The translations under genes were made by a program, and so were the position numbers. Below are positions 1 through 22,488 of a stretch of DNA of 32,000 bases, piece after piece (within the stretch, counting starts at the first letter, position 1; each line of letters starts with the position of its first letter). Origin of the DNA: Delftia acidovorans NBRC 14950 (GTDB lineage: Bacteria; Pseudomonadota; Gammaproteobacteria; Burkholderiales; Burkholderiaceae_C); NCBI RefSeq assembly GCF_001598795.1, contig NZ_BCZP01000005.1, positions 270,001-302,000 of the forward strand, given 5' to 3'. The notes beneath the pieces are model-generated. The model saw only the letters and a list, made by a program, of their open reading frames with translations, searched no databases and had not been told where the DNA came from.

Positions 1-281
1 AGGTGACCGAGCGGCCCGAGGCCGTATCGGCCGGCACCGTGCTGCTGGTGGGCACGCAGCGCGCGCGCATCGTGGCCGAGGTCAACCGGCTGCTGGCCGA
101 CGAGGGGCACCACGCCTCGTTTGCGCGCCGCATCAATCCCTATGGCGATGGCCAGGCCTCGCAGCGCATCGTGCGCGCCCTGCTGGGACAGCCCTTCGAC
201 GAGTTTGCCGCCGGACACACAGGCGGCGCGGCCGTCCCGGGCATCACGGCCGCCGTGACCAAGGGCATGGCGCCGGCCTGA
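1..281 (+). CDS. wecB: UDP-N-acetylglucosamine 2-epimerase, C-terminal fragment (gene continues upstream of the window)
   Basis: The frame is open to the window edge. The C-terminal sequence [17 protein letters not shown]...[10 protein letters not shown]...[20 protein letters not shown] follows the C-terminus of E. coli WecB as I remember it (RPEAV.AGTV.LVGT ... [10 protein letters not shown]). Only 78 nt separate it from the next gene, with no hairpin in between. Confidence 0.85.
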
Positions 282-359
282 ACCACGCACGCACCACCCG
301 CGCACCACGTCCACGAAGCGCATTACGAATCGAGCACCGAAGTGAGAAAAGAGGCCCCC

Positions 360-2585: not shown

Positions 2586-2627
2586 GCCCGGCCCGGGCAA
2601 CGATGACGACGGCATGAGGCGATCGCC

Positions 2628-4349
2628 ATGATCTCTTCCCTCTACTGGCCCTACCTGGTGGCCGACTACTACCACGCGCTGGAGATCGTCAGCGCCGTGG
2701 TGGCCGTCGTCATCCTGCTGTCCAGCATCGACGACCTGTTCATCGACGCCTGGTACTGGGTGCGCGAGGCCTGGCGCGCGCTGACCGTCAAGCGCCGCTA
2801 CCAGCCGCTCAAGGCACAGCAGTTGCAGGAGGTCGAGGAAAAGCCGCTGGCCATCATGGTGCCGGCCTGGCTGGAGTACGACGTGATCGCACCCATGCTC
2901 GAGAGCATGGTGGGCACGCTGGACTACAAGAACTACATGATCTTCGTGGGCACCTACCGCAACGACGAGCGCACCAAGAACGAGGTGGAGCGCATGCGCC
3001 GGCGCTACCGCCAGCTGGTCCGCGTGGAGGTGCCCCATGACGGCCCCACCTGCAAGGCCGACTGCCTCAACTGGATCGTGCAGGCCATCTTCCAGCAGAA
3101 CACGCTGCAGCCCGAGCCCTTTGCCGGCCTGATCCTGCACGACAGCGAGGACGTGCTGCACCCGCTGGAGCTCAAGTACTACAACTACCTGCTGCCGCGC
3201 ATGGACTTCATCCAGCTGCCCGTGACCTCGCTGGAGCGCGAGTGGTACGAGCTGGTGGCCGGCACCTACATGGACGAATTCGCCGAATGGCACACCAAGG
3301 ACCTGGTGGTGCGCGAGAGCATGTCGCACATGGTGCCCTCGGCCGGCGTGGGCACCTGCTTTTCGCGCAAGGCGATGGAGGAGCTGGCGGCCGAGACCCA
3401 CAACCAGCCCTTCAACACCGACACGCTGACCGAGGACTACGACATCGGCGCTCGGCTGGCGCGCCGGGGCATGAAGCAGATCTTCGGCAAGTTCCCCGTG
3501 GACTACGTGATACGGCGCAAGCCGCTGTTCGGCCTGGGCAAGGAAAAGGTGTCCACGCTGACCATGCCGCTGGGCATCCGCGAGTTCTTTCCCAACACCT
3601 TCAAGACCGCCTACCGGCAAAAGGCGCGCTGGACACTGGGCATCGGCCTGCAGGGCTGGAGCCAGGTCGGCTGGGCCGGGCCGCTGTCCACCAAGTACCT
3701 GCTGTTCCGGGACCGCAAGGGGCTGGTGACCTCCTTCGTGGCCATCCTGGCCTATCTGCTGCTGCTGAACTTCCTGCTGTTCCTGCTGGCCGATCACATG
3801 GGCTGGTGGACGGTGTACTACCCGTCCCTGTTCGCTCCCAACGGCTGGCTGGTGACGCTGATGAGCGTCAACGTCATCGCCCTGCTGCTGCGCGTGGTGC
3901 AGCGCGCCTGGTTCGTCTCGCGCCTGTACGGCTGGGAGCACGCCATGCTGTCCATCCCGCGCATGGTGATCGGCAACTTCATCAATGCCATGGCAGCGGC
4001 GCGCGCCTGGAAGCTGTTCATCGTCCACCTGGTCACGGGCAAGCGGCTGGCCTGGGACAAGACCATGCACGACTTCCCGTCCCCCGACCAGTTGAGCCAC
4101 CAGCGCCAGCGCCTGGGCGAGCTGCTGCTGTCATGGCAGGCCATCGACGAAACCCGGCTGGCCACCGCGCTGGAGATACAGCAGCGCGAACGCCGTCCGC
4201 TGGGCGCCATCCTCATGGAGCAGGGCTGGCTGGACGAGGCCACGCTGCGCGAGGCCATCAGCTTCCAGCAGGGGGAGCCCACCGACCCCACGGTGCATCC
4301 CGACATTCCCGCACAAGGCATTCCAAGCACCCCAAGGGCCGGCATATGA
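2628..4349 (+). CDS. nfrB: NfrB-like processive family-2 glycosyltransferase (exopolysaccharide synthase) with C-terminal MshEN-type c-di-GMP-binding domain
   Basis: Colinear with E. coli NfrB as remembered: LSSIDDLFIDAWYWVR, EKPLAIMVPAW, TLDYKNYMIFVGTY, CKADCLN, ILHDSEDV, IQLPV..LEREW, VPSAGVGTCFSRKA, TEDYDIG, and the QxxRW motif (QKARW, nt 3618-3632). Several TM helices follow the catalytic domain. The MshEN tandem motif is at the C-terminus. Confidence 0.85.
   Translation: MISSLYWPYLVADYYHALEIVSAVVAVVILLSSIDDLFIDAWYWVREAWRALTVKRRYQPLKAQQLQEVEEKPLAIMVPAWLEYDVIAPMLESMVGTLDYKNYMIFVGTYRNDERTKNEVERMRRRYRQLVRVEVPHDGPTCKADCLNWIVQAIFQQNTLQPEPFAGLILHDSEDVLHPLELKYYNYLLPRMDFIQLPVTSLEREWYELVAGTYMDEFAEWHTKDLVVRESMSHMVPSAGVGTCFSRKAMEELAAETHNQPFNTDTLTEDYDIGARLARRGMKQIFGKFPVDYVIRRKPLFGLGKEKVSTLTMPLGIREFFPNTFKTAYRQKARWTLGIGLQGWSQVGWAGPLSTKYLLFRDRKGLVTSFVAILAYLLLLNFLLFLLADHMGWWTVYYPSLFAPNGWLVTLMSVNVIALLLRVVQRAWFVSRLYGWEHAMLSIPRMVIGNFINAMAAARAWKLFIVHLVTGKRLAWDKTMHDFPSPDQLSHQRQRLGELLLSWQAIDETRLATALEIQQRERRPLGAILMEQGWLDEATLREAISFQQGEPTDPTVHPDIPAQGIPSTPRAGI
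4110..4268 (+). other. Tandem 24-residue MshEN-type c-di-GMP binding motif (aa 495-547 of the synthase)
   Basis: RLGELLLSWQAIDETRLATALEIQ - QRERR - PLGAILMEQGWLDEATLREAISFQ. Both halves fit RLGxx(LVI)(LVI)xxG(LVIF)(LVI)xxxx(LVIF)xxxLxxQ with a 5-residue spacer. Deviations are Gly10->Gln and position 11 (Ala) in half 1, and Arg1->Pro and position 11 (Trp) in half 2. Confidence 0.7.
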
Positions 4350-7213
4350 AGCATCTCGCTCCCCTCGTTCGCCCTCTCACGCTGGCCGCGCTGCTGGGCG
4401 CCGGCTGGAACGCGCCGCCGGCCTGGCCGCAGGCCGCAGCAGCCGTCAAGGCCGAGGCGCCGCTCAGGGGCCGCGCATGGCAGCTGGCCAACCAGGCCTA
4501 TGCCCACTATCAGGCCGGCCGCTTTGCACGGGCCGCCAGCGCCGCCGCATCGGCCGTACAGCTGCGCCCCGACCTGCTGCGCCTGCGCATGCTGCTGATC
4601 TACTCGCTGCAAAAGCAGGGCAAGAACGAGGAAGCGCTCAAGGCCATCGCCTCGGCCCGCGCCGCCGGGCTGGACGAGGCCACGCTGCAGCAGGCCGAAA
4701 CCAATGTGCGGGCCGCAGCGGCAGGCGGGGCGGCGGGCGGGCCTGCGGGGGCCACGGCTTCCGAGGCCTACAACAAGGCCTTTCCCATCGCCACGCAGGC
4801 CTACGCCGACTACAACGCCAGGAACTACGCAGACAGCGCGCGCAAGGCCGAGCAGGCCTTTCGCCTGGACCCCAGCCAGGGCCAATGGGCGCTGCTGTGG
4901 ATTGGTGCGCTGGAGGCGCAGGAACAGCTGGGTGCCGCCATCGAGGCCGCAGATGCCGCCCTGGCCCTGGAGCCCCCCAACAAAAGCGATCTGGTGGCCA
5001 AGCGCCAGACCCTGCGCCGCAGCCAGGCCGTGCTGCCGGCGCAAAAGGCCTACCAGGCGCTGATCGCCAACAACCCGGCGCAGGCCGTGCCCTTTGCGCG
5101 CGAGGCCGTGGCGCTGGCGCCGGGAACGGCATCGCACCGCCTGCTGCTGATCACCTCGCTGCTGCTGGCCGAGCAATTGCCCGATGCGGAAAAAGCCGCA
5201 GACGAGGCGCTGGCGCAGGACAACGAAGACACAGCGGCGCTGGGCATGCGCGGCTACATCCGCCAGCGCCAGGGCAAGACCGCACAGGCCAATGAAGACT
5301 TCGATGCCGTGCTCAAGCAGGACTGGCTGGACGAAAAGCAATCGGCCAACCTGCGCCTGATCGCGGCCGACGCGGCCCTGGCCGCTGGCGACGCGGCACG
5401 CGCCCGCGCGCTGCTGGCGCCCATGCCGGCACAGGATGAATCCGTGGCCCGCCGCCTCAAGCAAGCCGATGACCTGCGCCCCGGCCGCGATACGCCCATG
5501 GTGGCCGATACGCGCGGCGCTTCGCAGACCCTGGCCATGGCCGACTATCCGCCGCCCCTGCAGGACTGCCGCGACACGCCCTATGGCACGGTCTGCGAGC
5601 TGCAGCCTTCCGATGCCCAGGGCACGGGCGGCCCCAGCGCCCAGGCCTATGCGGCCTACGCGCGCCAGGACTACAAGGCCGCCATCGAACATGCGCAAAC
5701 GGCCGTGGAGCAGGACCCCGACAATGCGCAACTGCAAAAGCTGCTGACCACCACGCTGGCCGCAGGCAACCGCGACCAGCAGGGCCAGGCCCTGCTGCGG
5801 CTGGACAAGTCCCTGTCCCTCACCCCCAACGACCCCCAACTGCTGATGCAGCGCGGCTACCTGTACTCGCGCCAGGAAGAGCCGGCCAAGGCGCTGCAGG
5901 ACTTTCGCGCGGCGCGCGCCACGGGCGAGGCGCCAGCGGGCGCCATGCTGGACGAAGGCTATGCGCTGGCCGGCACCGGCGACAACCGGGGCGCCGTGCG
6001 CACCTTCAAGGAAGCCATCGACCTGGACGACGCCGGCACCGCCAAGCTCACGCCTGGCCAGCGCGAAAACGCACGCAGCGCCGTCTCCGGCTACGCACGC
6101 GAGTGGGGCGCCATCGTCTCCATGGGCTACCGGGGTGCGCGGCCTGCGGGGCGTGCGTTCTCGGACGGCATCCTCACCCAGGCCGGCGACGCCGTGTTCG
6201 GCACGGCCGAGGCCTACTGGCGTCCGTCCAACTTCCTGAACTCGTCCACCCGCATCTTCGATGTCTACGGGCGGCTGGGCAGCACCTTGCATGACGGCGG
6301 CGGCACCACGCTGGGCCAAAGCGCCATCGACCCCTGCACGGGCCTGCCCATCAATGTGCAGGCGGGCGACAACCGCGGCATCTCTGGCCTGCCCACCACC
6401 ACGGGCTCGCTGGGCATGCGCTTCACGCCGTCCACCAAGTACGCGCTGACCTTTGGCATAGAGCGCCAGTTCAACATCGGCTCCGCCACGCGCTCGGGCT
6501 TCATCACGCCTGAATCGCCCCAGCTGCGCTGCCTGATGAGCGGGCGCGATCCGCTCAACCCCACGGGCCCGGCGCTGGGCAACCCGATATCGGCCAAGTA
6601 CAGTGCGGGCGCGGGCCAGGGCGGCTGGCTGGCCTATGTCACCCATGGCTTCTACGAGGGAACGGGCCGGCGCACGGACCGCTCCAGCTGGTTCACCATG
6701 GAAGGCTACAGCCAGGCCGGCTATGCCAACCAGAGCATGGCCTCGCGCTTCACACTGACCGACCAGACCAGCGGCGCCCAGGTGGGCGACGGCTCGGGCC
6801 GCTACAAGCGCGAGCAATGGTTCTTCTCCACCGAGGCCCGCATCGGCCGCAGCTTCCGCGCCGACGGCATCAACCAGGGCCTGGTGATCTTCCCGTTCGG
6901 CGTGGTCGCGGCCGACTGGATCAAACAGAGGAACCGCGTGCAAGTGCGTTCCCTGCAGGCCGCCCCGGGCGCCACGCCCACCGCAGCCCAATTGGCCGCC
7001 CAGCAGGGACAGACCCTGGCCCTGCAAGGCAATGGCAGCAGTTGGTCGGCCAGCGCCGGCGTGGGCGTCAGCCTGCGCCAGTGGTTCCGCGAAAGCCACT
7101 ACAGCACGGCCCAGTCCTATGTGGACTGGTCCATGCAATACCGCTTCAACATCGGCGGCGGCCAGGCCGACCGGGCCAAGGGCCTCTTCATGACGCTGAC
7201 GCTGTCCTATTGA
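4346..7213 (+). CDS. nfrA: NfrA-like outer-membrane exopolysaccharide export protein (signal peptide, TPR region, C-terminal beta-barrel)
   Basis: The start ATG overlaps the synthase stop (ATGA at 4346-4349). The track ORF 3242-7213 is the same frame with a spurious N-terminal extension. Signal peptide: MKHLAPLVRPLTLAALLGAG. About 550 aa of Ala/Leu-rich TPR-like repeats (AYAHYQAGRFARAASAAASAVQLRPD..., YARQDYKAAIEHAQTAVEQDPDN...). The C-terminal third is Gly/Tyr/Ser-rich, consistent with beta strands, and ends ...GLFMTLTLSY (aromatic terminal residue). Confidence 0.75.
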   Translation: MKHLAPLVRPLTLAALLGAGWNAPPAWPQAAAAVKAEAPLRGRAWQLANQAYAHYQAGRFARAASAAASAVQLRPDLLRLRMLLIYSLQKQGKNEEALKAIASARAAGLDEATLQQAETNVRAAAAGGAAGGPAGATASEAYNKAFPIATQAYADYNARNYADSARKAEQAFRLDPSQGQWALLWIGALEAQEQLGAAIEAADAALALEPPNKSDLVAKRQTLRRSQAVLPAQKAYQALIANNPAQAVPFAREAVALAPGTASHRLLLITSLLLAEQLPDAEKAADEALAQDNEDTAALGMRGYIRQRQGKTAQANEDFDAVLKQDWLDEKQSANLRLIAADAALAAGDAARARALLAPMPAQDESVARRLKQADDLRPGRDTPMVADTRGASQTLAMADYPPPLQDCRDTPYGTVCELQPSDAQGTGGPSAQAYAAYARQDYKAAIEHAQTAVEQDPDNAQLQKLLTTTLAAGNRDQQGQALLRLDKSLSLTPNDPQLLMQRGYLYSRQEEPAKALQDFRAARATGEAPAGAMLDEGYALAGTGDNRGAVRTFKEAIDLDDAGTAKLTPGQRENARSAVSGYAREWGAIVSMGYRGARPAGRAFSDGILTQAGDAVFGTAEAYWRPSNFLNSSTRIFDVYGRLGSTLHDGGGTTLGQSAIDPCTGLPINVQAGDNRGISGLPTTTGSLGMRFTPSTKYALTFGIERQFNIGSATRSGFITPESPQLRCLMSGRDPLNPTGPALGNPISAKYSAGAGQGGWLAYVTHGFYEGTGRRTDRSSWFTMEGYSQAGYANQSMASRFTLTDQTSGAQVGDGSGRYKREQWFFSTEARIGRSFRADGINQGLVIFPFGVVAADWIKQRNRVQVRSLQAAPGATPTAAQLAAQQGQTLALQGNGSSWSASAGVGVSLRQWFRESHYSTAQSYVDWSMQYRFNIGGGQADRAKGLFMTLTLSY

Positions 7214-7270
7214 AAGCCCTGCCCCGCCGCCGCCACCACCACACAGAAAAGAGAAAAGGAGAAAGCTCCC

Positions 7271-8329
7271 ATGGATTCGACCAAGCAAGCACCCCGCCCT
7301 GCCCTGCACGGACTGCGCTCGGGCATGGCGCGCGCCGCACGCGGGCTGGCCGGCTGCGCACTGGTGCTGGGCGCGCTGGCAGCGCAGGGTACGGCCCAGG
7401 CCCAGGCCCAGGCCCAGGCCCAGGCACAGGACAGCTCCTCCATCGTCCTCAGGGGCAAGGATGGCTGGCTGTTTCCGGGCTGGGGCAGCCTGACCCAGGT
7501 GGACCGCGCCGGCATCACCGAATCCACCCGGCTGATCACCGAGGCGCGCAACCTGCTGGCCGCTCGCGGCGTGAAGCTGCAGGTGCTGCTGCTGCCCGAC
7601 AAGGTGCGCTTCTATGCCGACAAGATGCCCGACGGCAAGGCCATGAGCGCCGATGTCCAGGGCCGCTACAGGCAGGTGCTGCAGGCGCTGCAGGCCGCCG
7701 GCATTCCCAGCTTTGACGACGAGGCCGTGCTGCGCACCGTGCGCGACAGCGGCAAGGATGTGTTCTACCGCACCGACCAGCACTGGACCCAGGCGGCAGC
7801 CGACGCCACGGCCGAGGCCACCGCCCGCATGGTCCAGGGCGAGGTGCCCCAGCTGGCCGGCAGCGCCGGCAGCGGCCTGGCCCTGGGCGACACCGTCACC
7901 GAGCGCCGCTATGGCGACCTGGCCGAGCTGTTTCTGACCGCCGAGGAGCGCAAGCAGATCGGCCGCGAGGTCTACACCGTGCGCCGCCAGGCTCCGGCCA
8001 AGGGACTGCTCGACGATGAGCCCGCACCCGTCCACGTGACGGGCCACAGCATGGTCCAGCCCTACTTCGGCTTTCCGCAAAAGCTCTCCAACCTGCTGGA
8101 CCGCCCGGTCTCGCTGAACTGGAAGCCCGGCAACGTGGGCCAGTGGACCATGCTGCTGGAGTACCTGGAGTCGCCGGCCTTCAAGTCCCACAAGCCCCAG
8201 GTGCTGGTGTGGCAGATGTTCGAGCCCACCTACAGCTACGGCCCCAACGCGGCCGGGCAGTGGGACAACGCCTCGCTCATGCCCAACGCCACCTGGCTGG
8301 AGCGGCTGCGTGCCGCGCTCAAGGGCTGA
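7271..8329 (+). CDS. AlgX/AlgJ-family SGNH-like polysaccharide O-acyltransferase, secreted form
   Basis: Strong RBS (AAGGAGAAAGCTCCC-ATG). Signal peptide followed by an (AQ)6 linker. Family motifs: LRGKDGWLF, the FYRTDQHWT Asp-x-His block (nt 7775-7786), and a later VTGHSMV Gly-x-Ser block. Confidence 0.7.
   Translation: MDSTKQAPRPALHGLRSGMARAARGLAGCALVLGALAAQGTAQAQAQAQAQAQDSSSIVLRGKDGWLFPGWGSLTQVDRAGITESTRLITEARNLLAARGVKLQVLLLPDKVRFYADKMPDGKAMSADVQGRYRQVLQALQAAGIPSFDDEAVLRTVRDSGKDVFYRTDQHWTQAAADATAEATARMVQGEVPQLAGSAGSGLALGDTVTERRYGDLAELFLTAEERKQIGREVYTVRRQAPAKGLLDDEPAPVHVTGHSMVQPYFGFPQKLSNLLDRPVSLNWKPGNVGQWTMLLEYLESPAFKSHKPQVLVWQMFEPTYSYGPNAAGQWDNASLMPNATWLERLRAALKG
7394..7429 (+). repeat. 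Hexanucleotide tandem repeat (GCCCAG)x5 + GCACAG encoding (AQ)6
   Basis: Read directly from the sequence. It is in frame and sits just after the signal peptide of the AlgX-like protein. Confidence 0.9.
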
Positions 8330-9467
8330 CACCGTGGACCCCACCGCGCAAGAACTGCAAACCGACAAAGGACACCGGCGCAACGCCTGGATCTGGGGCG
8401 CCCTGCTGCTGTCGGGCCTGGCCTGGGGCGGCTGGACGCTGGCCAGCGGGGGACCGAAGGCCGGCGAGCTGCAACTGGCCGCCTGGCTGGATGGCCGCGC
8501 GGGCGCGGCGCTGAACAAGGGCCTGCGCCTGCCTGCGCAGTCCTCGCTGGAAACCGGCCAGGCCGCGCTGCGCTACCGCCTGCTGGGCGACACGGGAGCG
8601 CAGGTGGCCCTGGGCTGCCCGCAATGGATGTTCTACCGCGACGGCCTGCGGCCCCAGCCCGGCACGGGCGCCGCGCCCTTCGAGGCGCGCCAGCGTCTGC
8701 TGCGCCACTGGACGCGGCAGTTGCAGGACAAAGGCATTGCCACCCTGGTGGTGGCCGTGCCCGACAAGTCGCGCATCGAGGCCGCCCATCTGTGCGGCCT
8801 GCCCGTGGCTCCCGTGATGCTCCAGCGCCTGGACCTGTGGCAGCAGCGCCTGCAGGCCGACGGCATTGCCTTCGCCGATCTGCGCCCCGCCCTGCAGGCT
8901 CAGGAGCAGTCACAGCCGGTGTTCTTTCGCACCGACGTGCACATGAATGCCGAGGGCGCACGCGCCGCCGCCCTGGCCGTGGCCCAGGCCGCGCTGCCGC
9001 TGCTGGGCGGGCAGCGCGGCGCCCAGGCCTTCGAGGAATCCGCGCCCGGGCCGCTGCAGCCGCTGCCCGGCGACCTGCTGGCCCTGGCCGGCCTGGCCGA
9101 CGCACCGGCAGGCTGGCGCCCGCAGCGCGACGAAATACGCCCCCAGGCCATCACCCCCGTGCGCGGCGGCGGCCTGCTGGACGAGACGCCGCCCGTGCAG
9201 GTGCTGCTGGCCGGAAGCTCCAACGGGCTGCGCAGCAATTTCGCGCCACAGCTCGGCCGCGCGCTGGGCCAGGAAGTCTGGAACCTCAGCATGGACGGCG
9301 GCCAGTTCAGCGGCGCCATGGTGGCCGCGCTCAAGCGCCGCGCCTCCTGGCCGGCCAGCCTGCGGCTGGTGATCTGGGAGTTCTCGGAAAACACCTTGTC
9401 CCTGCCCCTGACGGACGATGAAAAAGCGGCGCTCAAGGAGATGGACGCCGCCTCCCCGCCTGCGTGA
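8310..9467 (+). CDS. AlgJ-like SGNH-like O-acyltransferase, N-terminally membrane-anchored paralogue
   Basis: GTG start at 8310 (GGAG 7 nt upstream; overlaps the previous gene by 20 nt) or GTG at 8334. There is no in-frame ATG near the 5' end. TM anchor: AWIWGALLLSGLAWGGWTLA. Motifs: QWMFYRDG, the FFRTDVHMN Asp-x-His block (nt 8934-8942), and LLAGSSNG (Gly-x-Ser). Confidence 0.65.
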   Translation: MPRSRADTVDPTAQELQTDKGHRRNAWIWGALLLSGLAWGGWTLASGGPKAGELQLAAWLDGRAGAALNKGLRLPAQSSLETGQAALRYRLLGDTGAQVALGCPQWMFYRDGLRPQPGTGAAPFEARQRLLRHWTRQLQDKGIATLVVAVPDKSRIEAAHLCGLPVAPVMLQRLDLWQQRLQADGIAFADLRPALQAQEQSQPVFFRTDVHMNAEGARAAALAVAQAALPLLGGQRGAQAFEESAPGPLQPLPGDLLALAGLADAPAGWRPQRDEIRPQAITPVRGGGLLDETPPVQVLLAGSSNGLRSNFAPQLGRALGQEVWNLSMDGGQFSGAMVAALKRRASWPASLRLVIWEFSENTLSLPLTDDEKAALKEMDAASPPA

Positions 9468-9480
9468 CCCCGCCCGCTAC

Positions 9481-11061
9481 ATGCTGTTCAATTCCTATCT
9501 TTTCCTGCTGCTGTTCCTGCCCATCGCGCTGGCGGGCCACTACCTGGCCGGGGCCATCAGCCTGCGGCTGGCCGCGTTCTGGCTGTGCCTGACGTCCTTC
9601 GTCTTCTACGGCTGGTGGAACCCGCAGTTCGTCGCCCTGCTGGCCCTGTCCATCGCCTTCAACTACGTGGTGAGCCTGCTGATCCTGCGCTTTGCGGGCC
9701 GCGCGCGGCTGCAGGGGCTGGTCACCGCCCTGGGCGTGGGCGCCGACCTGGCGGCACTGTTCCACTACAAGTACTTCGCCACGCTGTTCAACTTCCTGGG
9801 CGAATGGGGGCTGACGCAGGGCGGCATGCACGAGCTGATCCTGCCCCTGGGCATCTCGTTCTTCACCTTCACCCAGATCGGCTACCTGCTGGACTGCCGC
9901 TCGGGCATCGTCAAGGAACGCAGCCTGCTCAGCTACGTGCTGTTCGTGACCTTCTTCCCGCACCTGATCGCGGGGCCCATCCTGCACCACAAGGAAATGA
10001 TGCCGCAGTTCGCGCAGCCGGATAACTACCGGTTCCGCGCGGACAACCTGTCCATCGGCGGCACGCTGTTCGTGATCGGCCTGGCCAAGAAGGTGCTGCT
10101 GGCCGACGAGATCGCGCCCTATGCAGACGCGGGCTTTGCCGCGCCCGGCGACCTGCAGTTCTGGGCCGCCTGGGGCGCCAGCCTCAGCTACGCGCTGCAG
10201 CTGTACTTCGACTTCTCGGGCTATTCGGACATGGCGCTGGGCCTGGCGCGCATGTTCGGCATCCGCTTCCCGCTGAACTTCAACTCGCCCTACAAGGCCG
10301 GCAGCATCATCGACTTCTGGGCGCGCTGGCACATGACGCTGACGCGCTACCTCACGGCCTACCTGTACTACCCCGTGGCCATGGCCATCTCGCGTGCACG
10401 CGAAAAGCGCGGCCTGTCCGTGGGCTCCAGCGCCGCGCGCACGCCCGGCGGCTTTGCGGCCACCATCGTCGTGCCCACGCTGTTCACCATGGGGTTGGCG
10501 GGCATCTGGCACGGTGCGGGCCTGCAGTACGTGATCTTCGGCCTGCTGCATGCCTTCTACCTGTCGGTCAACCATGCCTGGCGCATCTTCGTGGTCAGCC
10601 GCAAGCCGGCCGCCGCACGCAAGTCGGGCCGGGGCGTGCAGGCGCTGTGCGTTGTCATCACCTTCATCGCCGTGCTCATCGCCCAGACCTTCTTCCGCGC
10701 CCATGGCGTGGGCGACGCCATGCTGTTGCTCAAGGGCATGGCCGGCCTGCGCGGCGTGGAGGCGCTGGAATCGCTGTCGCACCTGCAGGGCCTGGCCGTG
10801 GGCGACGCGCTGCGGCTGGCCATAGGCCACCACATGCAGCTGGCCCTGGTCCTGCTGCTGCTGGCCATTGCCTGGTTCACGCCCAATGCCCACCAGATCC
10901 TGGGCCGCTTCTCGCCCGCCATGTTCAAGGTGCAGGAAGCGCCCCGCGCCTGGATGCGCTGGCGCCCCAGCGCAGGCTGGACGGCCGTGACCCTGGTCCT
11001 GCTCTTCCTGTGCCTGGTCAACCTGCACAAGGAAACCCGCTTCCTGTATTTCCAGTTCTGA
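9481..11061 (+). CDS. algI: AlgI-type membrane-bound O-acyltransferase (MBOAT)
   Basis: Start MLFNSYLFLLLFLPIALAGHY matches the AlgI N-terminus pattern; the track start at 9418 is a spurious extension. MBOAT hallmarks: FPHLIAGPI, LYFDFSGYSDMALGLARMFG, DFWARWHMTLTRYL, GIWHGAG (catalytic His). The C-terminal ...RFLYFQF matches the ...FLYFQF tail of P. aeruginosa AlgI as I recall it. Confidence 0.9.
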   Translation: MLFNSYLFLLLFLPIALAGHYLAGAISLRLAAFWLCLTSFVFYGWWNPQFVALLALSIAFNYVVSLLILRFAGRARLQGLVTALGVGADLAALFHYKYFATLFNFLGEWGLTQGGMHELILPLGISFFTFTQIGYLLDCRSGIVKERSLLSYVLFVTFFPHLIAGPILHHKEMMPQFAQPDNYRFRADNLSIGGTLFVIGLAKKVLLADEIAPYADAGFAAPGDLQFWAAWGASLSYALQLYFDFSGYSDMALGLARMFGIRFPLNFNSPYKAGSIIDFWARWHMTLTRYLTAYLYYPVAMAISRAREKRGLSVGSSAARTPGGFAATIVVPTLFTMGLAGIWHGAGLQYVIFGLLHAFYLSVNHAWRIFVVSRKPAAARKSGRGVQALCVVITFIAVLIAQTFFRAHGVGDAMLLLKGMAGLRGVEALESLSHLQGLAVGDALRLAIGHHMQLALVLLLLAIAWFTPNAHQILGRFSPAMFKVQEAPRAWMRWRPSAGWTAVTLVLLFLCLVNLHKETRFLYFQF

Positions 11062-11082
11062 AACACCTGTTGGAGAAAAACC

Positions 11083-11322
11083 ATGTCCCTGAATGACATC
11101 GAAACCAAGATTGCCCAGATCATCGGCGCCATCATCCTGACCTCGGTCGAGCCCGATACGCTGCTGCTCGAATCGGGCCTGGTGGACTCGCTGTCCGCCG
11201 TGGACGTGGCACTGGCCATCGAAAAGGAATTCGGCGTCAAGATACCGCCATCGGAGATCGACCTGCACCTGGAATCCGTGCACACGCTGGCGCAGTACGT
11301 GGCCGAGCAGCGCAAGGCCTGA
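11083..11322 (+). CDS. Stand-alone acyl/aminoacyl carrier protein (DltC/PCP-like)
   Basis: 79 aa with a GGAGA RBS. Phosphopantetheine-attachment context GLVDSLSAVDVALAIEKEFG, with the candidate Ser encoded at 11188-11190. The size and acidic helix pattern are typical of carrier proteins. Confidence 0.8.
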   Translation: MSLNDIETKIAQIIGAIILTSVEPDTLLLESGLVDSLSAVDVALAIEKEFGVKIPPSEIDLHLESVHTLAQYVAEQRKA

Positions 11323-11379
11323 TGCAGCGCCTGCACGCCGCCGCCCTGTCCCTTTGTCCCTGCGCAACAAGGAGCCCGC

Positions 11380-12864
11380 ATGCGATTCAGTTTTGACCGC
11401 TTCGACTTCACCGAGCCCGGCGCCGACACCGCGCGGCCCGCCGTGATCGATGCCGCCGGCACGCTGGACTGGCAGCAACTGGCCCAGGCCGTGGCGCAAT
11501 GGGAGCAGCAGGCGCTGGCGCGCGGCGCGCGGCGCGACGAGCCGCTGCTGATCACGGGGCACAAGGAGACCGCGTTTCTCGTGGCCATCCTCGGCTGCCT
11601 GCGCCTGGGCGTGCCCTTCGTGCCGGTGGACGTGATCAACCCGCCCGAGCGCATGGCGCGCATCGCCACGCTGGTGCAGGCCGGCCTGCACTACGACGCG
11701 CAGGCCCGCAGCTTCCTGGACACCGGCATCGCCGCGCAGCCGCTGCAGGAAAAGTCGCTGGCCTACATCATGTTCACCTCGGGCAGCACGGGCGATCCCA
11801 AAGGCGTGCAGATCGGGCGCGAGAGCCTGGGCCTGTTCGCCGGTTGGATACGCGACTGCCTGGCCCTGGGCGAGGCGCCGGTCTTCATGGACCAGATGCT
11901 GTTCAGCTTCGACTTTTCGCTGTTCAACTGGATGGGCGCCCTGGTCACGGGCGGTGCCTGCGTGCTGTGCGCGCGCGAGACCATTGCCGACCGCCAGGCC
12001 TTTGCCGCCTACCTGGCGGGCACCCATGTGAACGTCTGGGCATCCACGCCCTCCTTCGTGCGCCAGCAGCTGCTGGATGCAGACTTCGACCAGCAGCACC
12101 TGCCCGACCTGCGCGTCTTCGTCTTCGGCGCCGAATCGCTCACGCCCACCGTGGCCGAGGCGCTGTGGAGCCGCTTTCCCCAGGCGCGCATCATCAACTC
12201 CTACGGCCCCACCGAGGCCACCTGCTCCACCACCTGGGTGGAGATCGACCCCGCGCTGCGCCAGCGCGCGCCGCTGCCCTTTCCCATCGGCCGGGCCAAG
12301 CCCTATGCCGATGTGTTCCTGGACGAAGGCGAGATCTGCGTGGCCGGCGACCATGTGATGCGCGGCTACCTCAACCGCACCGACCTGCACGCCACACGCA
12401 TGTTCATGCGCAACGGCAAGCGCGGCTACCGCACGGGCGACCTGGGAGAGATCGACGGCGAGGGCCTGGTCACCTTCCACGGCCGGCGCGACGACCAGAT
12501 CAAGATGCACGGCTACCGCATCGAGCTGGCCGAGGTCGATGCCGTGCTGGCCACCCTGCCCGGCGTGCGCGCGGGCGCGGCGGTGGCACTCAAGCGGCCC
12601 GATGGCTTCATCGTGCGCATGATCGGCTTCGTGGACCTGGACCGCAGCGGCCCGCCCGGCATGCAGCCCCTGCCCGAAGACCTGGCCGGGTGGCGCGAAC
12701 TGCTGGCCCAGCGCGTGCCGCCCTACATGATTCCGTCGGAACTGCTGGCCTGCCACGGCTTTCCGCTAACGCAGACTGACAAGGCCGACCGCAAGCAACT
12801 GGAGCGCATGTACCTTGATGCACGCATGCGCCCCGCCAAGGAAACCAAGGACCCGCAGGCATGA
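11380..12864 (+). CDS. DltA-like stand-alone adenylate-forming enzyme (carrier-protein ligase)
   Basis: AAGGAG RBS. Adenylation core motifs: YIMFTSGSTGDPKGVQI (nt 11764-11808), NSYGPTEAT, YRTGDLG, GRRDDQIKMHGYRIELAEVD, and a terminal DKADRK lysine. The N-terminal half is colinear with B. subtilis DltA as remembered (PLLITGHKE..VAILGCLRLGVPFVPVD...PPERMARI versus PILVYGHME..VSFLGSVKAGHPYIPVD...PSERIAKI; FSFDFSLFNWMGALVTGG versus FSFDLSVMDIYPSLVTGG). Confidence 0.85.
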   Translation: MRFSFDRFDFTEPGADTARPAVIDAAGTLDWQQLAQAVAQWEQQALARGARRDEPLLITGHKETAFLVAILGCLRLGVPFVPVDVINPPERMARIATLVQAGLHYDAQARSFLDTGIAAQPLQEKSLAYIMFTSGSTGDPKGVQIGRESLGLFAGWIRDCLALGEAPVFMDQMLFSFDFSLFNWMGALVTGGACVLCARETIADRQAFAAYLAGTHVNVWASTPSFVRQQLLDADFDQQHLPDLRVFVFGAESLTPTVAEALWSRFPQARIINSYGPTEATCSTTWVEIDPALRQRAPLPFPIGRAKPYADVFLDEGEICVAGDHVMRGYLNRTDLHATRMFMRNGKRGYRTGDLGEIDGEGLVTFHGRRDDQIKMHGYRIELAEVDAVLATLPGVRAGAAVALKRPDGFIVRMIGFVDLDRSGPPGMQPLPEDLAGWRELLAQRVPPYMIPSELLACHGFPLTQTDKADRKQLERMYLDARMRPAKETKDPQA

Positions 12865-13562
12865 CCTCCGCTTTTTCCCCCGTGATGCGTACCGTCGCGC
12901 TCGCCCTGGCCGGCCTGGCCGGGCTCTCCTGCCTGCCCGCCGCGCATGCCGAAGGCACGCTGGCCCAGCTCTATGCGGCGCGCCCGCCCGCAGGCTCGTC
13001 CTTCGTGCGCGTGGTCCACCCCGACGCGGGCAGCCTGCGCGTGAAGATAGGCAGCGGCCCCGAGCAGACGCTGTCCGGCAGCAAGCCGGCCAGCAGCTAC
13101 GCCATCGTCAAGGGCGACACGCCCTTCGGCATTCAGCTGGACGGCAAGAGCGCCGGCAGTATGAAGGTGGCGCCGGGCAGCTTCACCACCCTGGTGCCGC
13201 AGCGCCCGGGCAGGAATGCGGCCGCGCGCTTCACGGCCATCGACGACTCCGGCGGCAGCCAGGACGCGCTCAAGGCCGAGCTGCGTTTCTACAACCTCAC
13301 CACGGACTGCCCCCAGGGCGGCCTGCAGGTCGCGCCCGCGGGCACGCCGCTGTTCACGGGCGTGGCGCCGGCCGCATCGGCCAGCCGCTCCATCAACCCG
13401 GTCAGTGCCCAGCTCGCCGCCACCTGCGCCACTGCGGCCAGCGCGCCGCTGGCGCTGCCACAGTTGCAGCCGGGCGACCACTACAGCCTGTTCATGACGG
13501 GTACGGCCGCCGCACCCGTGCTGCGCGGCCAGGCCAGCGCCACCGACACCTATCGTCCCTGA
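12861..13562 (+). CDS. algF: AlgF-like periplasmic protein (accessory component of Alg-type O-acylation)
   Basis: The start overlaps the upstream stop (ATGA at 12861-12864). Signal peptide: ...LSCLPAAHA|EG. Blocks parallel to P. aeruginosa AlgF as remembered: QLYAARPPAGSSFVRVVH (ALYGP.APKGS.FVR..N), SFTTLV (YYTLV), AELRFYNLT, RSINPVSAQLAA (REINPVKV.LAL), YSLFMTGTA. This rests on recall only. Confidence 0.6.
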   Translation: MTSAFSPVMRTVALALAGLAGLSCLPAAHAEGTLAQLYAARPPAGSSFVRVVHPDAGSLRVKIGSGPEQTLSGSKPASSYAIVKGDTPFGIQLDGKSAGSMKVAPGSFTTLVPQRPGRNAAARFTAIDDSGGSQDALKAELRFYNLTTDCPQGGLQVAPAGTPLFTGVAPAASASRSINPVSAQLAATCATAASAPLALPQLQPGDHYSLFMTGTAAAPVLRGQASATDTYRP

Positions 13563-13588
13563 CCCAGCCCAAGGAGACCGACACAGAC

Positions 13589-14734
13589 ATGCGCACCCGC
13601 TCCGTATTGCGTGAAGACCACCTGCTGTTCAAGGAACAGGTGGACCGATTCGTGGCCACCGAGATCCTGCCCCACATCAATGACTGGGAGGCCGAGGGCA
13701 TCACGCCGCGCGCCCTGTGGCGCAAGGCCGGCGACAGCGGCCTGCTGAACTGCGACCTGCCTCCGCCCTACGGCCAGGGCGGCGACTTCGGCCACGCGGC
13801 CGTGGTCATCGAGGCGCTGGCGCGCGCCAACTGCCTGGGCATCGGCTTTTCCATCCATTCCGACATGGTGGCGCCCTATCTCTGGAACTTCGGCACGCAG
13901 GTGCAGAAGGACCGCTGGCTGCCGCGCATGGCCACGGGCGAGCTGATTGGCGCCATCGCCCTGACCGAGCCCGGCGCGGGCAGCGACCTCAAGGCCGTGC
14001 GCACGCGCGCCCGGCGCAAGAGCGAGAGTGAAGGCGGCGGCTACGTGCTCAACGGACAGAAAACCTTCATCACCAACGGCGTCAACGCCGGCCTGATGGT
14101 GGTGCTGGCCAGCACCGAGCCCGACCTGGGCGCGCGCGGCCTGTCGCTGTTCGTGGTGGAAGAAGGCATGAAGGGCCTGGGCAAGGGACCGGCGCTGCGC
14201 AAGATAGGCCAGCACAGCCAGGACACCTGCGAGCTGTTCTTCGACGAACTGCACCTGCCGGCCGACCACCTGCTGGGGCGCGAGAACGCTGCCTTCGAGC
14301 ATGTGACCCAGGAGCTGGCGCAGGAACGGCTGGCGATCGCGCTGCGCGCGGCGGCCTCCACCGAAGGCATGCTGGACGAGGCCGCCGAGTTCGTGCGCAA
14401 CCGCAAGGTCTTCGGGCGCCGCGTGCTCGACTACCAGAACACCCGCTTCAAGTTCGCCGACGCCCTGGCCAAGACCACCATGCTGCGCGTCTTCCTGGAC
14501 GACTGCCTGACCCAGCACATGGAAGGCTCACTGGACTCCGTCACCGCCGCCATGGCCAAGCTCAACGCCACCGAGCTGCAGGGCCAGGTGCTGGACGAGC
14601 TGCTGCAACTGCACGGCGGCTACGGCTACATGGCCGAATACGGCATTGGCCGCGCCTGGGCCGATGCACGGGCGCTGCGCATCTTCGGCGGCAGCAGCGA
14701 AATCCTCAGAGAGATCATCGGCAAGCGCTTCTGA
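13589..14734 (+). CDS. Acyl-CoA dehydrogenase-family flavoprotein (substrate unknown; possibly acts on a carrier-protein thioester)
   Basis: ATG at 13589 lies 11 nt after AAGGAGA; the track ORF 12815-14734 has a spurious N-terminal extension. ACAD pattern throughout: LFKEQVDRF, GAIALTEPGAGSDL, GQKTFITNG, and the C-terminal RIFGGSSEILREIIGKRF. The gene sits 26 nt downstream of the algF-like stop. Confidence 0.85.
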   Translation: MRTRSVLREDHLLFKEQVDRFVATEILPHINDWEAEGITPRALWRKAGDSGLLNCDLPPPYGQGGDFGHAAVVIEALARANCLGIGFSIHSDMVAPYLWNFGTQVQKDRWLPRMATGELIGAIALTEPGAGSDLKAVRTRARRKSESEGGGYVLNGQKTFITNGVNAGLMVVLASTEPDLGARGLSLFVVEEGMKGLGKGPALRKIGQHSQDTCELFFDELHLPADHLLGRENAAFEHVTQELAQERLAIALRAAASTEGMLDEAAEFVRNRKVFGRRVLDYQNTRFKFADALAKTTMLRVFLDDCLTQHMEGSLDSVTAAMAKLNATELQGQVLDELLQLHGGYGYMAEYGIGRAWADARALRIFGGSSEILREIIGKRF

Positions 14735-14751
14735 CCCGGCAGCCACCGCGC

Positions 14752-15726
14752 TCAGCGGGCGGCGGCCTTCCACTCGCGCAGCAGTTGCCGGGCCTCTGGC
14801 GTGTCGTTCAGCACCCAGGGGTCGATGGCGAAGGCGACCACGCGCTGGGCGCCGTAGTCGCGGGCCACGTCCCACTGGCGGCGCACGCGCTCGAAGCTGG
14901 CCGTGCGCGCCTGGAAGTCCGAGCCATCGGGCCGCGTGGGCGGCAGTTGCTCGAACAGTTCCACGATGAGGTCGAACGGCGCCCTGCGCTCCAGCAGCAT
15001 CTGCTGCAGCGGTGCCAGCGCCTCGTAGTTGCGCAGGCCCGCCACGCCCACGCCGTCCTGCACCATGGGGCGCAGGGATACGCGGTCCAGCAGGATGCTC
15101 CACAGCGTGGGCAGGCTGCCCAGCGTCTGCAGCTGGCTGAAATAGGTGGAGATGCCGGGCACTTGGCCGGATGTGGCCGCTGCCGCCTGCGCCAGTGGCT
15201 GCAGTGCGCTCACCAGCAGCTCGATGCGCTCGGGCGCGGCCCAGTGGTATTGCTCCAGCTCGTAGGGGATGTACCAGCCGCGAAACGCCGCATGGCGCGG
15301 CCAGGTGCTGGTGTACATGTGGCTGGCGCCCTGCTCGGCGATATGCGCCAGGTAGGGCGCGGGGCCTGCGGCGTTGGAAAGGCTGATCTGCTTCCACCAG
15401 CGCTCGTCATAGGGCAGGCCCAGGTGCACGCCCATGCCCAGTTCGGTGCAGATGTCCAGCAAGTCGGCGATCTGCGCGTCGGCCAGCATCCAGCTGTCCG
15501 CCTCGGAATCGCCTTGCAGGCCGCTCCATTGCACGAACAGCTCCCGGCAGCCCAACGCCTGGGTGGCGGCCAGGCGCTGGCGCCATTGATCGCGCGGCAT
15601 CTCCAGATGGCTGCGCCACGGCTGCAGGAAACTGCCCGACACGGGCGCCGAGGCCGCGCAACCGACCAGCGAGGCACAGGCGGCGGCCGCGCCGGCGCCG
15701 AGGAATTCGCGTCTGGACAAATGCAT
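14752..15726 (-). CDS. Tat-exported lipoprotein, DUF4434-like (glycoside-hydrolase-like TIM barrel) protein
   Basis: Start at MHLSRREFLGAGAAAACASLVGC: a twin-arginine motif SRREFL followed by a lipobox LVGC. Blocks GSFLQPW....W...L......G..ELFVQWSG and GWYIPYELE resemble the DUF4434 family as I recall it. The gene is convergent with the EPS operon (17 nt between stops). Confidence 0.55.
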   Translation of the reverse strand: MHLSRREFLGAGAAAACASLVGCAASAPVSGSFLQPWRSHLEMPRDQWRQRLAATQALGCRELFVQWSGLQGDSEADSWMLADAQIADLLDICTELGMGVHLGLPYDERWWKQISLSNAAGPAPYLAHIAEQGASHMYTSTWPRHAAFRGWYIPYELEQYHWAAPERIELLVSALQPLAQAAAATSGQVPGISTYFSQLQTLGSLPTLWSILLDRVSLRPMVQDGVGVAGLRNYEALAPLQQMLLERRAPFDLIVELFEQLPPTRPDGSDFQARTASFERVRRQWDVARDYGAQRVVAFAIDPWVLNDTPEARQLLREWKAAAR

Positions 15727-15940
15727 GGTGGGAACGGCCGCAAGGCTGCGTGAAGCGAAGCACCAAGAATACAGCCAAGCGGCGCGGCAGCCGCCCCGCA
15801 AGAGCCGGCCCACCCGGACTTGACCCGGCCGGGCTGAGGGTTGAATCAGAACCGACGATGAATTGGAGCCAAGGGGACGACGCCCGTGCAGATGTCCTGC
15901 CGGCCCGAACCAGGCAAGGACTTGCTGCCATTAGATCGAG

Positions 15941-15979
15941 TAGAAATGCCTCGCGCCACCCTTGGGCGGCGCGAGGCAT
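15941..15979 (-). terminator. Hairpin downstream of dctA (putative terminator)
   Basis: A 12-bp perfect stem, ATGCCTCGCGCC / GGCGCGAGGCAT (15946-15957 and 15968-15979), lies about 45 nt past the dctA stop. On the minus strand it is followed only by a short TTTCT tract, so the U-tract is weak. Confidence 0.45.
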
Positions 15980-16023
15980 CGTCGGGTGGGCCTTTGCCGG
16001 CCCTTGCCCTGGCCAGGGCGTTC

Positions 16024-22437: not shown

Positions 22438-22488
22438 GGCGACGCCTGGCCTGCCAGCACGGGCCAGGGACTTACGTCCCGAACTTTC

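Follow-up and report, generated by a model that had tools for sequence, protein, structure and literature searches.

The stretch of DNA analysed here (the window, 32,000 nucleotides (nt), positions 270,001 to 302,000 of contig NZ_BCZP01000005.1 of Delftia acidovorans NBRC 14950) carries what is, by its gene content, an Nfr-type exopolysaccharide cluster with an acylation module embedded in it. The module encodes an AlgI-type membrane-bound O-acyltransferase (MBOAT), two SGNH-like proteins of the ALGX family and an AlgF-like protein, together with a carrier protein and an adenylating enzyme (adenylase) of the Dlt lineage. These proteins probably form an alginate-type relay that is fed by a carrier thioester, not by acyl-coenzyme A (acyl-CoA), and that esterifies the Nfr polysaccharide with an aminoacyl group other than D-alanine (D-Ala), possibly a dehydrogenated one; the reading draws on sequence comparison and on analogy with characterised acylation systems. 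A first-pass annotation of the window had predicted a carrier-fed MBOAT with an AlgJ/F/X-like relay, and conserved synteny, the Dlt lineage of the donor pair and the conserved serine of the carrier support that prediction.

Six co-directional open reading frames (ORFs) on the + strand lie within 7271-13562, and their coordinates, checked against the window, and their junctions of -20, +13, +21, +57 and -4 (ATGA) nt, read directly from the sequence, were all found as first annotated. The MBOAT start at 9481 is the first ATG of ORF 9418-11061 that yields the +13 gap. Every motif quoted earlier is present (TDQHW, TDVH, FWARWH, GIWHGAG, FLYFQF and GLVDSLS), as are the adenylase motifs YIMFTSGSTGDPKGV and GRRDDQIKMHGYRIE, and profile hidden Markov models confirmed all six protein families (Table 1). 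The functional unit exceeds this range and extends from about position 3 to 15726. The six genes stand as delimited; they do not make up the full unit, since the Nfr genes and a conserved acyl-CoA dehydrogenase gene of the donor module, which had been missed, belong to it too.

Conservation of gene order

The fetched loci were surveyed by tblastn with eleven window proteins, and the locus counts are lower bounds. The order ALGX-ALGX-MBOAT-carrier-adenylase-AlgF was found in at least 23 loci from alpha-, beta- and gammaproteobacteria, with syntenic loci from Achromobacter, Pandoraea, Diaphorobacter, Cupriavidus, Stenotrophomonas, Xanthomonas, Pseudomonas and Xanthobacter. Adenylase homologues of 60-87% identity occur, among the matches listed, in Achromobacter, Pandoraea, Paraburkholderia, Burkholderia, Trinickia, Diaphorobacter, Oxalicibacterium, Cupriavidus, Pseudomonas (putida group), Xanthomonas, Stenotrophomonas and Xanthobacter. 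Coincidental adjacency of the donor pair and the algI-like gene, which the first-pass annotation had allowed for, is contradicted by this conservation: the pair recurs beside an algI-like gene in all of the syntenic loci, the order is kept across three proteobacterial classes, and the linkage is therefore not a coincidence.

In nearly all loci, wherever the contig reaches, NfrB and NfrA genes lie upstream and a DUF4434 gene lies downstream. In Xanthobacter, where no nfrB lies within 10 kb, the seven-gene cassette is intact, dehydrogenase included, and adjoins a divergent NfrA-like gene, which indicates that the cassette moves as a block. Achromobacter has a canonical dltC-dltD-dltX-dltB-dltA operon with the D-Ala pocket code as well as an Nfr-linked cluster with the new code described below (L001 and L045, both A. 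xylosoxidans, and L025-L032 in the numbering of the loci).

Carrier protein and adenylase

The phosphopantetheine site of the carrier is Ser36 in GLVDSLS (codon 11188-11190). The modifiable serine on which the earlier prediction depended is thus present, and the serine of the DS(L/M) motif is kept in all homologues. The carrier is 54% identical to Bordetella DltC and scores 27-31 bits with the NCBIfam DltC models, against cut-offs of 52-68. The adenylase shares 51% identity with Bordetella DltA; outside its own family, its next relatives are DltA proteins from Bordetella and Achromobacter. In Bordetella, DltA and DltC sit in a canonical dltC-dltD-dltX-dltB-dltA operon. Scores with the DltA models are 327 (NF003417, cut-off 476) and 323 (TIGR01734, cut-off 560), and AlmE (4oxi) is a distant match at 2e-28. 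By their identity to the Bordetella proteins adenylase and carrier form a true Dlt-lineage donor pair.

The earlier description of the 494-aa (amino acid) enzyme as DltA-like thus stands as to lineage; the D-Ala pocket is replaced. The ten specificity positions were mapped through an alignment of Bordetella DltA to the DltA of Bacillus cereus and B. subtilis and through family alignments. The code obtained is DFFAVGSCSK, as compared with DLYVLCTVAK in canonical Bordetella and Achromobacter DltA and DLMTLCTVAK in B. cereus DltA. All eight variable positions differ from the Bordetella/Achromobacter code and seven of the eight from that of B. cereus, and the alpha-amino-binding Asp and the catalytic Lys are retained. 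A Gly aligns to the Cys of FLFCGE in B. cereus DltA, which we take to be Cys269, the residue that selects the enantiomer and excludes L-alanine. DFFAVGSCSK is found in the window and in 18 of the 23 syntenic loci, and the other five differ by one conservative change (F to Y, A to T or V to L). The specificity comparison proposed earlier was thus made against DltA, with the D-Ala code found replaced. To our knowledge the new code matches no described specificity code. Its aromatic residue at 239, small residues at 278, 301 and 322 and lack of charge presumably resemble the codes for hydrophobic L-amino acids, a likeness on which no weight is placed. The pocket points to an amino acid other than D-alanine as substrate, probably one with a larger uncharged side chain.

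The MBOAT and its sister clusters

The MBOAT contains FWARWH, GIWHGAG with His344 (codon 10510-10512) and a C-terminal FLYFQF with Tyr523 (codon 11047-11049). Residues 101-405 align to DltB (6bug) with GIWHG over GFWHG, so that His344 falls on the catalytic His. The DltB-like core is followed by about 120 extra residues with two hydrophobic helices, ending in FLYFQF. Identity to Bordetella DltB is 31-33% over about half the length of the protein (526 vs 375 aa), and the score with the NCBIfam DltB model TIGR04091 is 179 against a cut-off of 375. In Bordetella the FXYXXF motif is on a separate 41-aa DltX, which ends in FQYQQF, and DltB is without it. Judged by alignment and architecture, the MBOAT of the cluster is no DltB; the label AlgI-type rests on architecture, not on a measured identity to Pseudomonas aeruginosa AlgI. 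The Tyr of FXYXXF was shown to be an acyl shuttle in DltB/DltX and PatA by Anderson et al. (PMC12148441), who also describe MBOAT-SGNH pathways other than Dlt as being without a carrier protein. The locus had been expected to bear on the donor used by AlgI-type MBOATs; this question was partly settled in 2025, when the PatA donor was shown to be acetyl-CoA (PMC12148441), and the locus adds that an AlgI-type architecture fits carrier donors.

Ten MBOAT contexts were inspected (L001-L003 and L085-L091), each at 57% identity or more to the window MBOAT. The carrier gene adjoins the MBOAT gene in all ten and the loader varies; an [RK]FLYFQF tail ends all MBOAT relatives read, down to 57% identity. 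In Paraburkholderia ferrariae, P. nemoris and Ralstonia the order is BcsB-like, NfrB, NfrA, AlgF, ALGX, ALGX, MBOAT, carrier and a DltA with the exact D-Ala code. The arrangement is the same in Trinickia (L033), where the two ALGX domains are fused in a 733-aa protein and the MBOAT (P0236) is 61% identical to that of the window. These D-Ala-coded Burkholderiaceae clusters (L088 5866-12387, L089 5845-12511, L090 1437-7792 and L033 1647-7955) have no dehydrogenase, and they are predicted to D-alanylate an exopolysaccharide through an alginate-type relay. In Pseudacidovorax (L085, 7240-12465 and 15412-17091) a D-Ala-like DltA (DVYVVCTVAK), a DltC and a protein of the acyl-CoA dehydrogenase (ACAD) fold are encoded by a three-gene string on the opposite strand. 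This ACAD-fold protein is of the FadE16/SfnB-like kind, its gene precedes those of the carrier and adenylase, and it is not orthologous to the window dehydrogenase. The same locus has a Fic-domain gene between the MBOAT and AlgF genes, and a CD-NTase and patatin gene pair (CBASS-like) nearby.

A third kind of loader occurs in an Achromobacter deleyi-type locus and in Janthinobacterium, where genes for an FkbH-domain protein (TIGR01686, 323 and 276 bits, cut-off 147) and an 83-aa carrier lie between the ALGX genes and the MBOAT gene. FkbH enzymes load a glyceryl unit on a carrier. FkbH and carrier genes adjoin an AlgI-type MBOAT gene in L086 (7808-11593) and L087 (7875-11599), both in Nfr-type clusters, and in L092 (4781-10059), a Rhodobacteraceae plasmid on which a carrier, an FkbH-like protein, an MBOAT of about 40% identity and a VOC protein are encoded. 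A glyoxalase/VOC gene follows the FkbH-carrier-MBOAT set in both L086 and L092. At the same level of about 40% identity the Skermanella MBOAT has no carrier in its context. The arrangement suggests a polysaccharide acylation fed by a glyceryl carrier, of which literature searches found no description.

The strongest argument that a carrier thioester is the MBOAT donor is that three unrelated carrier loaders adjoin the same MBOAT relay. A wider proposal, put forward tentatively, is that one AlgI-type MBOAT-SGNH clade may serve as a modular carrier-fed platform with a swappable loader (a D-Ala DltA, a re-specified DltA-like enzyme with ACAD tailoring, or FkbH for glyceryl), and that the substituent in the window may be an oxidised non-D-Ala amino acid built on the carrier before export.

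The acyl-CoA dehydrogenase and the identity of the acyl group

The dehydrogenase gene starts 26 nt after the algF-like gene. The best solved relatives of its product are human long-chain acyl-CoA dehydrogenase (LCAD; 8w0t, 339 bits) and 2pg0 (325 bits); the score with the MbtN model is 117 bits. A Gly (in IFGGSSE) takes the place of the catalytic Glu of medium-chain enzymes, and the Glu in ELAQERL, which aligns with PQERL of LCAD, is presumably the catalytic base. The gene is present in 21 of the 23 loci at 51-79% identity, and it was evidently co-inherited with the cassette, because these values run parallel to the identities of the MBOAT (66-78%) and the adenylase (60-77%). An LCAD-type gene was found only with the new pocket code and is absent from every DLYVLCTVAK cluster inspected. 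Co-inheritance, this restriction to the new code and the Pseudacidovorax ACAD-carrier-adenylase string together tie the dehydrogenase to the donor module. By analogy with known trios of this kind it may tailor the carrier-bound acyl group, a role given about an even chance.

The scores of the dehydrogenase disfavour a route from proline to a pyrrole-2-carboxyl donor, as with PltF/L/E: LCAD matches at 339 bits, prolyl-carrier dehydrogenases at only 152 and 142. With the RedW and PigA models the enzyme likewise stays below the cut-offs, at 196 bits (cut-off 650) and 181 bits (cut-off 500).

The best-surviving alternative, although on the whole an unlikely one, is that carrier-fed acylation holds and that the dehydrogenase acts outside the donor pathway as a CoA-dependent enzyme, for example making or removing a substrate-linked metabolite. 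The enzyme is about as similar to human LCAD as housekeeping bacterial enzymes are, and the two loci that are without it keep the adenylase code unchanged. It has nevertheless been co-inherited across three classes, with identities tracking those of its neighbours and intergenic gaps of 3-26 nt, and Pseudacidovorax places a non-orthologous ACAD-fold gene in one string with carrier and adenylase. Trios of adenylase, carrier and ACAD-fold enzyme are moreover a known design (PltF/L/E and MbtM/L/N).

Still less probable is that the polysaccharide is D-alanylated exactly as teichoic acids are by Dlt, the divergent pocket still picking D-alanine and the dehydrogenase being unrelated. DltA models are indeed the best family matches of the adenylase, outside the family it comes closest to the DltA of Bordetella and Achromobacter, and the exact D-Ala code stands beside the same MBOAT type in the Paraburkholderia, Ralstonia and Trinickia sister clusters. 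The complete change of the variable positions relative to the Bordetella/Achromobacter code, with Cys replaced by Gly at what we take to be the D-selecting position, argues against it, and the new code is held over lineages only 60-77% identical overall. The occurrence of both a dlt operon and this cluster in Achromobacter argues for different substrates, and the dehydrogenase accompanies the new code and no DLYVLCTVAK cluster.

SGNH-like and AlgF-like proteins

The first ALGX protein has a signal peptide and the motif TDQHW (D169/H171), with a predicted triad of D169, H171 and S260. The second has an N-terminal hydrophobic anchor segment and the motif TDVH (D209/H211), with D209, H211 and S303/S304 as predicted residues. 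AlgJ (4o8v) is the best solved relative of the first (9.7e-16), with the D-x-H and G-x-S motifs aligned, and it matches the second at 1.4e-15, with the catalytic motifs aligned. The matches of both to AlgX are weaker (5e-7 to 8e-9, against about 1e-15 for AlgJ). The carbohydrate-binding module of AlgX is absent from both proteins, whose 352 and 385 aa hold the ALGX domain only. The first protein, described earlier as AlgX/J-like, is thus of the ALGX family and closer to AlgJ than to AlgX. A hexanucleotide repeat, (GGCCCA) x 6.3 at 7393-7430, encodes an (Ala-Gln)n run directly after the predicted signal peptide of the first protein, and the tract is possibly length-variable between strains.

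The Pfam AlgF match scores 46.2 bits against a cut-off of 34.4. AlgF is described in the part of PMC10641220 consulted as a mediator of protein-protein interactions, and by analogy the AlgF-like protein presumably organises the relay.

At family level the SGNH-like and AlgF-like parts are indistinguishable from those of acetylation systems, and ordinary O-acetylation of the Nfr polysaccharide as in alginate has accordingly to be weighed, with an MBOAT that uses acetyl-CoA or carrier-loaded acetyl and with adenylase, carrier and dehydrogenase as bystanders or acetyl suppliers. The fused-shuttle MBOATs of AlgI/PatA type use acetyl-CoA where tested (PMC12148441), and the equivalent insertion in Simplicispira was read as acetyltransferase machinery by Junkermeier and Hengge, in the passages of PMC8669469 consulted. 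This alternative is nonetheless considered very unlikely. In every surveyed locus the MBOAT and AlgF genes enclose those of the carrier and adenylase, a carrier with one of three unrelated loader kinds accompanies the MBOAT clade in all ten inspected contexts, the adenylase is of the DltA lineage with an alpha-amino-binding Asp and not of an acetate-activating type, and the dehydrogenase would have no role on acetyl.

Nfr-type polysaccharide surroundings

The NfrB-like protein scores 945 bits with NF012033 (cut-off 537) and 54.4 bits with NF053729, a cyclic di-GMP (c-di-GMP) motif (cut-off 38), and is 43% identical to Escherichia coli NfrB over 559 aa. It has 573 aa with one detected MshEN-type motif, and E. 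coli NfrB (L094, 6942-9179) has 745 aa; the second, weaker C-terminal repeat of the latter aligns to the same window segment as the first. The NfrA-like protein scores 67.4 bits with NfrA_C (cut-off 25) and matches several TPR families, and its start overlaps the nfrB-like stop by 4 nt. E. coli YbcH matches DUF4434 at 235 bits and is thus of the same family as the product of the last gene of the cluster, which is convergent with the operon in nearly all surveyed loci.

The epimerase fragment at the window edge matches Epimerase_2 at 55.5 bits (cut-off 30.6, model positions 288-346 of 347) and ends 60 nt before the first cluster gene. This WecB/NfrC-like enzyme probably supplies UDP-N-acetylmannosamine (UDP-ManNAc) for the polymer, which is probably of ManNAc type because the wecB-like gene lies upstream, fitting the linkage of wecB homologues to nfrB that is reported for many genomes in the portion of PMC8669469 consulted. 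The 747-aa protein has no Pfam or NCBIfam match. Its homologues from Xanthomonas, Achromobacter and Paraburkholderia show a faint CBM_BcsB_1st match, and its gene is kept at the same position across the surveyed loci; the protein may be a partner of the synthase in the periplasm, akin to BcsB, which is offered as a lead.

With an NfrB carrying an MshEN domain, an NfrA with TPR and NfrA_C, a YbcH-family protein and a linked epimerase gene, the locus is, on family matches, an Nfr-type, synthase-dependent exopolysaccharide cluster in which the acylation module lies between the nfrA-like and ybcH-like genes. The E. coli Nfr system makes a ManNAc-dependent surface glycan under c-di-GMP control, according to the parts of PMC8669469 and PMC8669472 drawn on here. 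Junkermeier and Hengge (2021) noted an alginate-acetyltransferase-like insertion in some nfr clusters, including that of Simplicispira, and read it as an acetyltransferase; in the passages of PMC8669469 consulted their account of the insertion names no adenylase, carrier or dehydrogenase.

The least probable alternative is that the relay acylates some other envelope molecule, such as lipopolysaccharide, peptidoglycan or, as has been proposed for the Bordetella dra locus, a protein of the outer membrane, and that the nfr linkage reflects co-regulation only: the Xanthobacter cassette without nfrB within 10 kb and the non-teichoic acceptors of proteobacterial dlt operons favour it, but the cassette lies between nfrA and ybcH in one co-directional string in nearly all loci, an NfrA-like gene is adjacent even in Xanthobacter, and no role other than polysaccharide acylation is known for ALGX-family and AlgF proteins.

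Proposed mechanism

From the domains, residues, synteny and pocket change described above, the carrier-fed acylation of the Nfr polysaccharide would run as follows, with the chemistry of each step taken by analogy from characterised systems. The NfrB-like synthase would be activated by c-di-GMP, as in E. coli, and the probably ManNAc-based polymer would leave through the NfrA-like porin. In the cytoplasm the adenylase, given its homology and changed pocket, would adenylate an amino acid other than D-alanine and load it on the phosphopantetheine of Ser36 of the carrier. Next, and as the weakest step, the dehydrogenase may act on the carrier-bound acyl group, in the simplest case by alpha,beta-dehydrogenation. 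The loaded carrier would dock on the MBOAT, where His344 is expected to catalyse the move of the acyl group onto Tyr523, in the FLYFQF shuttle at the periplasmic face, as for DltB/DltX and PatA. From the acyl-Tyr the group would pass to the catalytic Ser of the anchored AlgJ-like protein, the secreted AlgJ/X-like protein or both, with the AlgF-like protein organising the transfer, and from there to hydroxyls of the nascent polymer.

Several points weigh against this reading. The pocket code alone names no substrate, and adenylase, carrier and MBOAT all fall below the curated NCBIfam cut-offs for Dlt proteins, so that function is not transferable from Dlt. No phosphopantetheinyl transferase gene is found in the cluster, and none is needed if AcpS serves, as it does for DltC. 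The dehydrogenase is missing from Pandoraea sp. PE-S2T-3 (L008) and S. daejeonensis (L015), where the pocket code is unchanged, and its closeness to CoA-dependent long-chain enzymes (339 bits to LCAD) means that it could act on CoA esters.

Relation to known systems

The Dlt system for D-alanylation of teichoic acids, with its Bordetella/Achromobacter version, shares with the window the path from adenylase to carrier to MBOAT, the FXYXXF Tyr shuttle and an SGNH-type finisher. DltD, which is present in the Bordetella locus, was not found in the window by Pfam (PF04914), nor is there a DltX, and ALGX-family proteins take the place of DltD. The window MBOAT has 526 aa with a fused shuttle, whereas DltB has about 380-420 aa, no tail and a separate DltX. 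The window further differs in its replaced D-Ala pocket, in an acceptor that is presumably a secreted polysaccharide and in the extra dehydrogenase. The D-Ala DltA pocket and score, a DltB-type MBOAT with DltX, and DltD are thus all wanting from a Dlt assignment.

With alginate AlgI/J/F/X and cellulose WssF-I the window shares a fused-shuttle MBOAT (the catalytic His and a two-helix extension with FXYXXF), a pair of anchored and soluble ALGX-family proteins (PF16822) and an AlgF-family protein (PF11182), the module being placed in each case inside a synthase-dependent, c-di-GMP-controlled polysaccharide operon. An AlgX proper and linkage to alg8/alg44/algK/algE are lacking: the synthases are Alg8/44/K/E and BcsA/B/C in the known systems and NfrB/NfrA in the window, and neither SGNH-like protein of the window has the AlgX module. 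Neither carrier nor adenylase is encoded by the known systems, for which acetyl-CoA is assumed as donor (PMC12148441); the window encodes both. The statement in the first-pass annotation that Alg, Wss and Pat-type systems are without a dedicated adenylase/carrier pair agrees with the literature, in which MBOAT-SGNH pathways outside Dlt are said to have no carrier protein (PMC12148441).

PatA/PatB of peptidoglycan O-acetylation has the same His and C-terminal FXYXXF Tyr in its MBOAT; this Tyr becomes auto-acylated and passes its acyl group on to the Ser of an SGNH protein (PMC12148441). PatA/PatB is the best-tested template for the steps from MBOAT to SGNH protein. It differs in its acetyl-CoA donor and peptidoglycan acceptor and has no carrier, adenylase, AlgF or dehydrogenase. 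E. coli NfrB/NfrA/YbcH (the N4 phage receptor glycan) shares with the window the synthase, the NfrA_C porin, the YbcH-family protein and a linked wecB-like gene; the acylation module and the BcsB-like gene are absent from E. coli. Xanthomonas xagABCD is probably an Nfr-type counterpart, a reading that draws on PMC3609779. Vibrio AlmE/AlmF/AlmG, which places glycine on lipid A, likewise uses a Gram-negative, Dlt-derived adenylase/carrier pair for an envelope glycoconjugate. Transfer in that system is made by a cytoplasmic-face acyltransferase of LpxL type, not by an MBOAT-SGNH relay. In secondary metabolism PltF/PltL/PltE and PigI/G/A (proline to pyrrole-2-carboxyl), MbtM/MbtL/MbtN (mycobactin) and ZmaJ/H/I combine a stand-alone adenylase, a stand-alone carrier and an ACAD-fold enzyme that works on the carrier-bound group until an acyltransferase takes it further. 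The window differs from these trios in that its dehydrogenase is LCAD-type and its product would go to an MBOAT and a polysaccharide and not to a small molecule.

By family membership the system is Dlt-like on the cytoplasmic side and resembles alginate, cellulose and peptidoglycan acetylation on the periplasmic side. Literature searches found no described system with this combination, in agreement with what had been supposed from the sequence, and full-text searching, which did not extend to Schultz et al. 2023, turned up no account of an AlgI-type MBOAT paired with an adenylase or carrier. The parts are known and the nfr insertion had been glimpsed earlier; the combination of adenylase, carrier and dehydrogenase with an AlgI-type relay appears to be new.

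Significance and annotation

MBOAT-SGNH systems have been divided into Dlt, with a carrier and a separate DltX, and the others (alginate, cellulose, peptidoglycan and secondary cell-wall polymers), with a fused shuttle and acetyl-CoA assumed as donor (PMC12148441). The locus is a natural hybrid that breaks this split, in that a fused-shuttle, AlgI-type enzyme has been co-inherited with a DltA/DltC-derived donor pair, and the loader swaps in the sister clusters offer a testable system for how an MBOAT recognises a carrier protein rather than CoA. If the proposal is true, the Nfr exopolysaccharides of Delftia, Achromobacter, Stenotrophomonas, Pandoraea, Burkholderiaceae and some pseudomonads would carry new esters of aminoacyl, dehydro- or oxo-acyl and glyceryl type, cationic or reactive aminoacyl groups among them. 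Opportunists of the cystic-fibrosis airway (Achromobacter xylosoxidans, Stenotrophomonas maltophilia and Pandoraea) carry the clusters, as do plant-associated Burkholderiaceae and xanthomonads. Such decorations could alter the charge, how well the matrix coheres, recognition by phages (for which Nfr glycans serve as receptors in E. coli) and resistance to cationic peptides.

In public databases genes of the cluster are labelled 'D-alanine--poly(phosphoribitol) ligase', 'probable alginate O-acetylase AlgI', 'DltB' and alginate AlgJ, and these labels are probably misleading for this cluster. A biofilm study of Achromobacter took an annotated 'AlgJ', which may or may not be the gene of the cluster, as evidence about alginate (PMC6471707).

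Features of the window

The features of the cluster are given in Table 1. No promoter-like sites and, on the + strand, no terminator-like sites were found in 1-16500 of the window, and no Rfam family matched in the window.

Table 1. Genes of the Nfr-type cluster and its acylation module, in window coordinates
Feature	Coordinates	Strand	Evidence
UDP-N-acetylglucosamine 2-epimerase gene, WecB/NfrC-like, 3' end, last 92 codons	3..281	+	Epimerase_2
747-aa protein with N-terminal signal sequence and C-terminal membrane anchor, possibly BcsB-like	342..2585	+	ORF
NfrB-like processive family-2 glycosyltransferase with C-terminal MshEN-type c-di-GMP motif; polysaccharide synthase	2628..4349	+	NF012033
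NfrA-like TPR and outer-membrane porin protein, predicted export	4346..7213	+	Pfam NfrA_C
Secreted AlgJ/AlgX-family SGNH-like acyltransferase, 352 aa	7271..8329	+	Pfam ALGX 1.7e-76
Membrane-anchored AlgJ-like SGNH-like acyltransferase, 385 aa	8310..9467	+	Pfam ALGX 1e-75
AlgI-type MBOAT, 526 aa	9481..11061	+	Pfam MBOAT 4.3e-22
DltC-like carrier protein, 79 aa	11083..11322	+	Pfam PP-binding 3.2e-10
DltA-lineage adenylating enzyme, 494 aa	11380..12864	+	Pfam AMP-binding 4.4e-52
AlgF-like periplasmic protein with signal peptide, 233 aa	12861..13562	+	Pfam AlgF 4.7e-12
Flavoprotein of the long-chain-type acyl-CoA dehydrogenase family, 381 aa	13589..14734	+	three Pfam ACAD domains
YbcH-family (DUF4434) protein with twin-arginine/lipoprotein-like N-terminus	14752..15726	-	Pfam DUF4434 263.9 bits

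The window is of high GC content (about 70%), with a dip to about 0.63 (vs about 0.70 elsewhere) at 21001-23000 that coincides with a Gram-negative porin gene at 21409-22437 (Porin_4, 2.3e-61). Its proteins have exact matches from Delftia acidovorans, WP_034392085.1 among them. A P-type ATPase gene (heavy-metal type) at 26102-28306 encodes a His/Asp/Gly-rich N-terminus from a (CATGGCCATGAC)-like tandem repeat at 26279-26334, and is followed by an outer-membrane efflux protein gene at 29674-31122.

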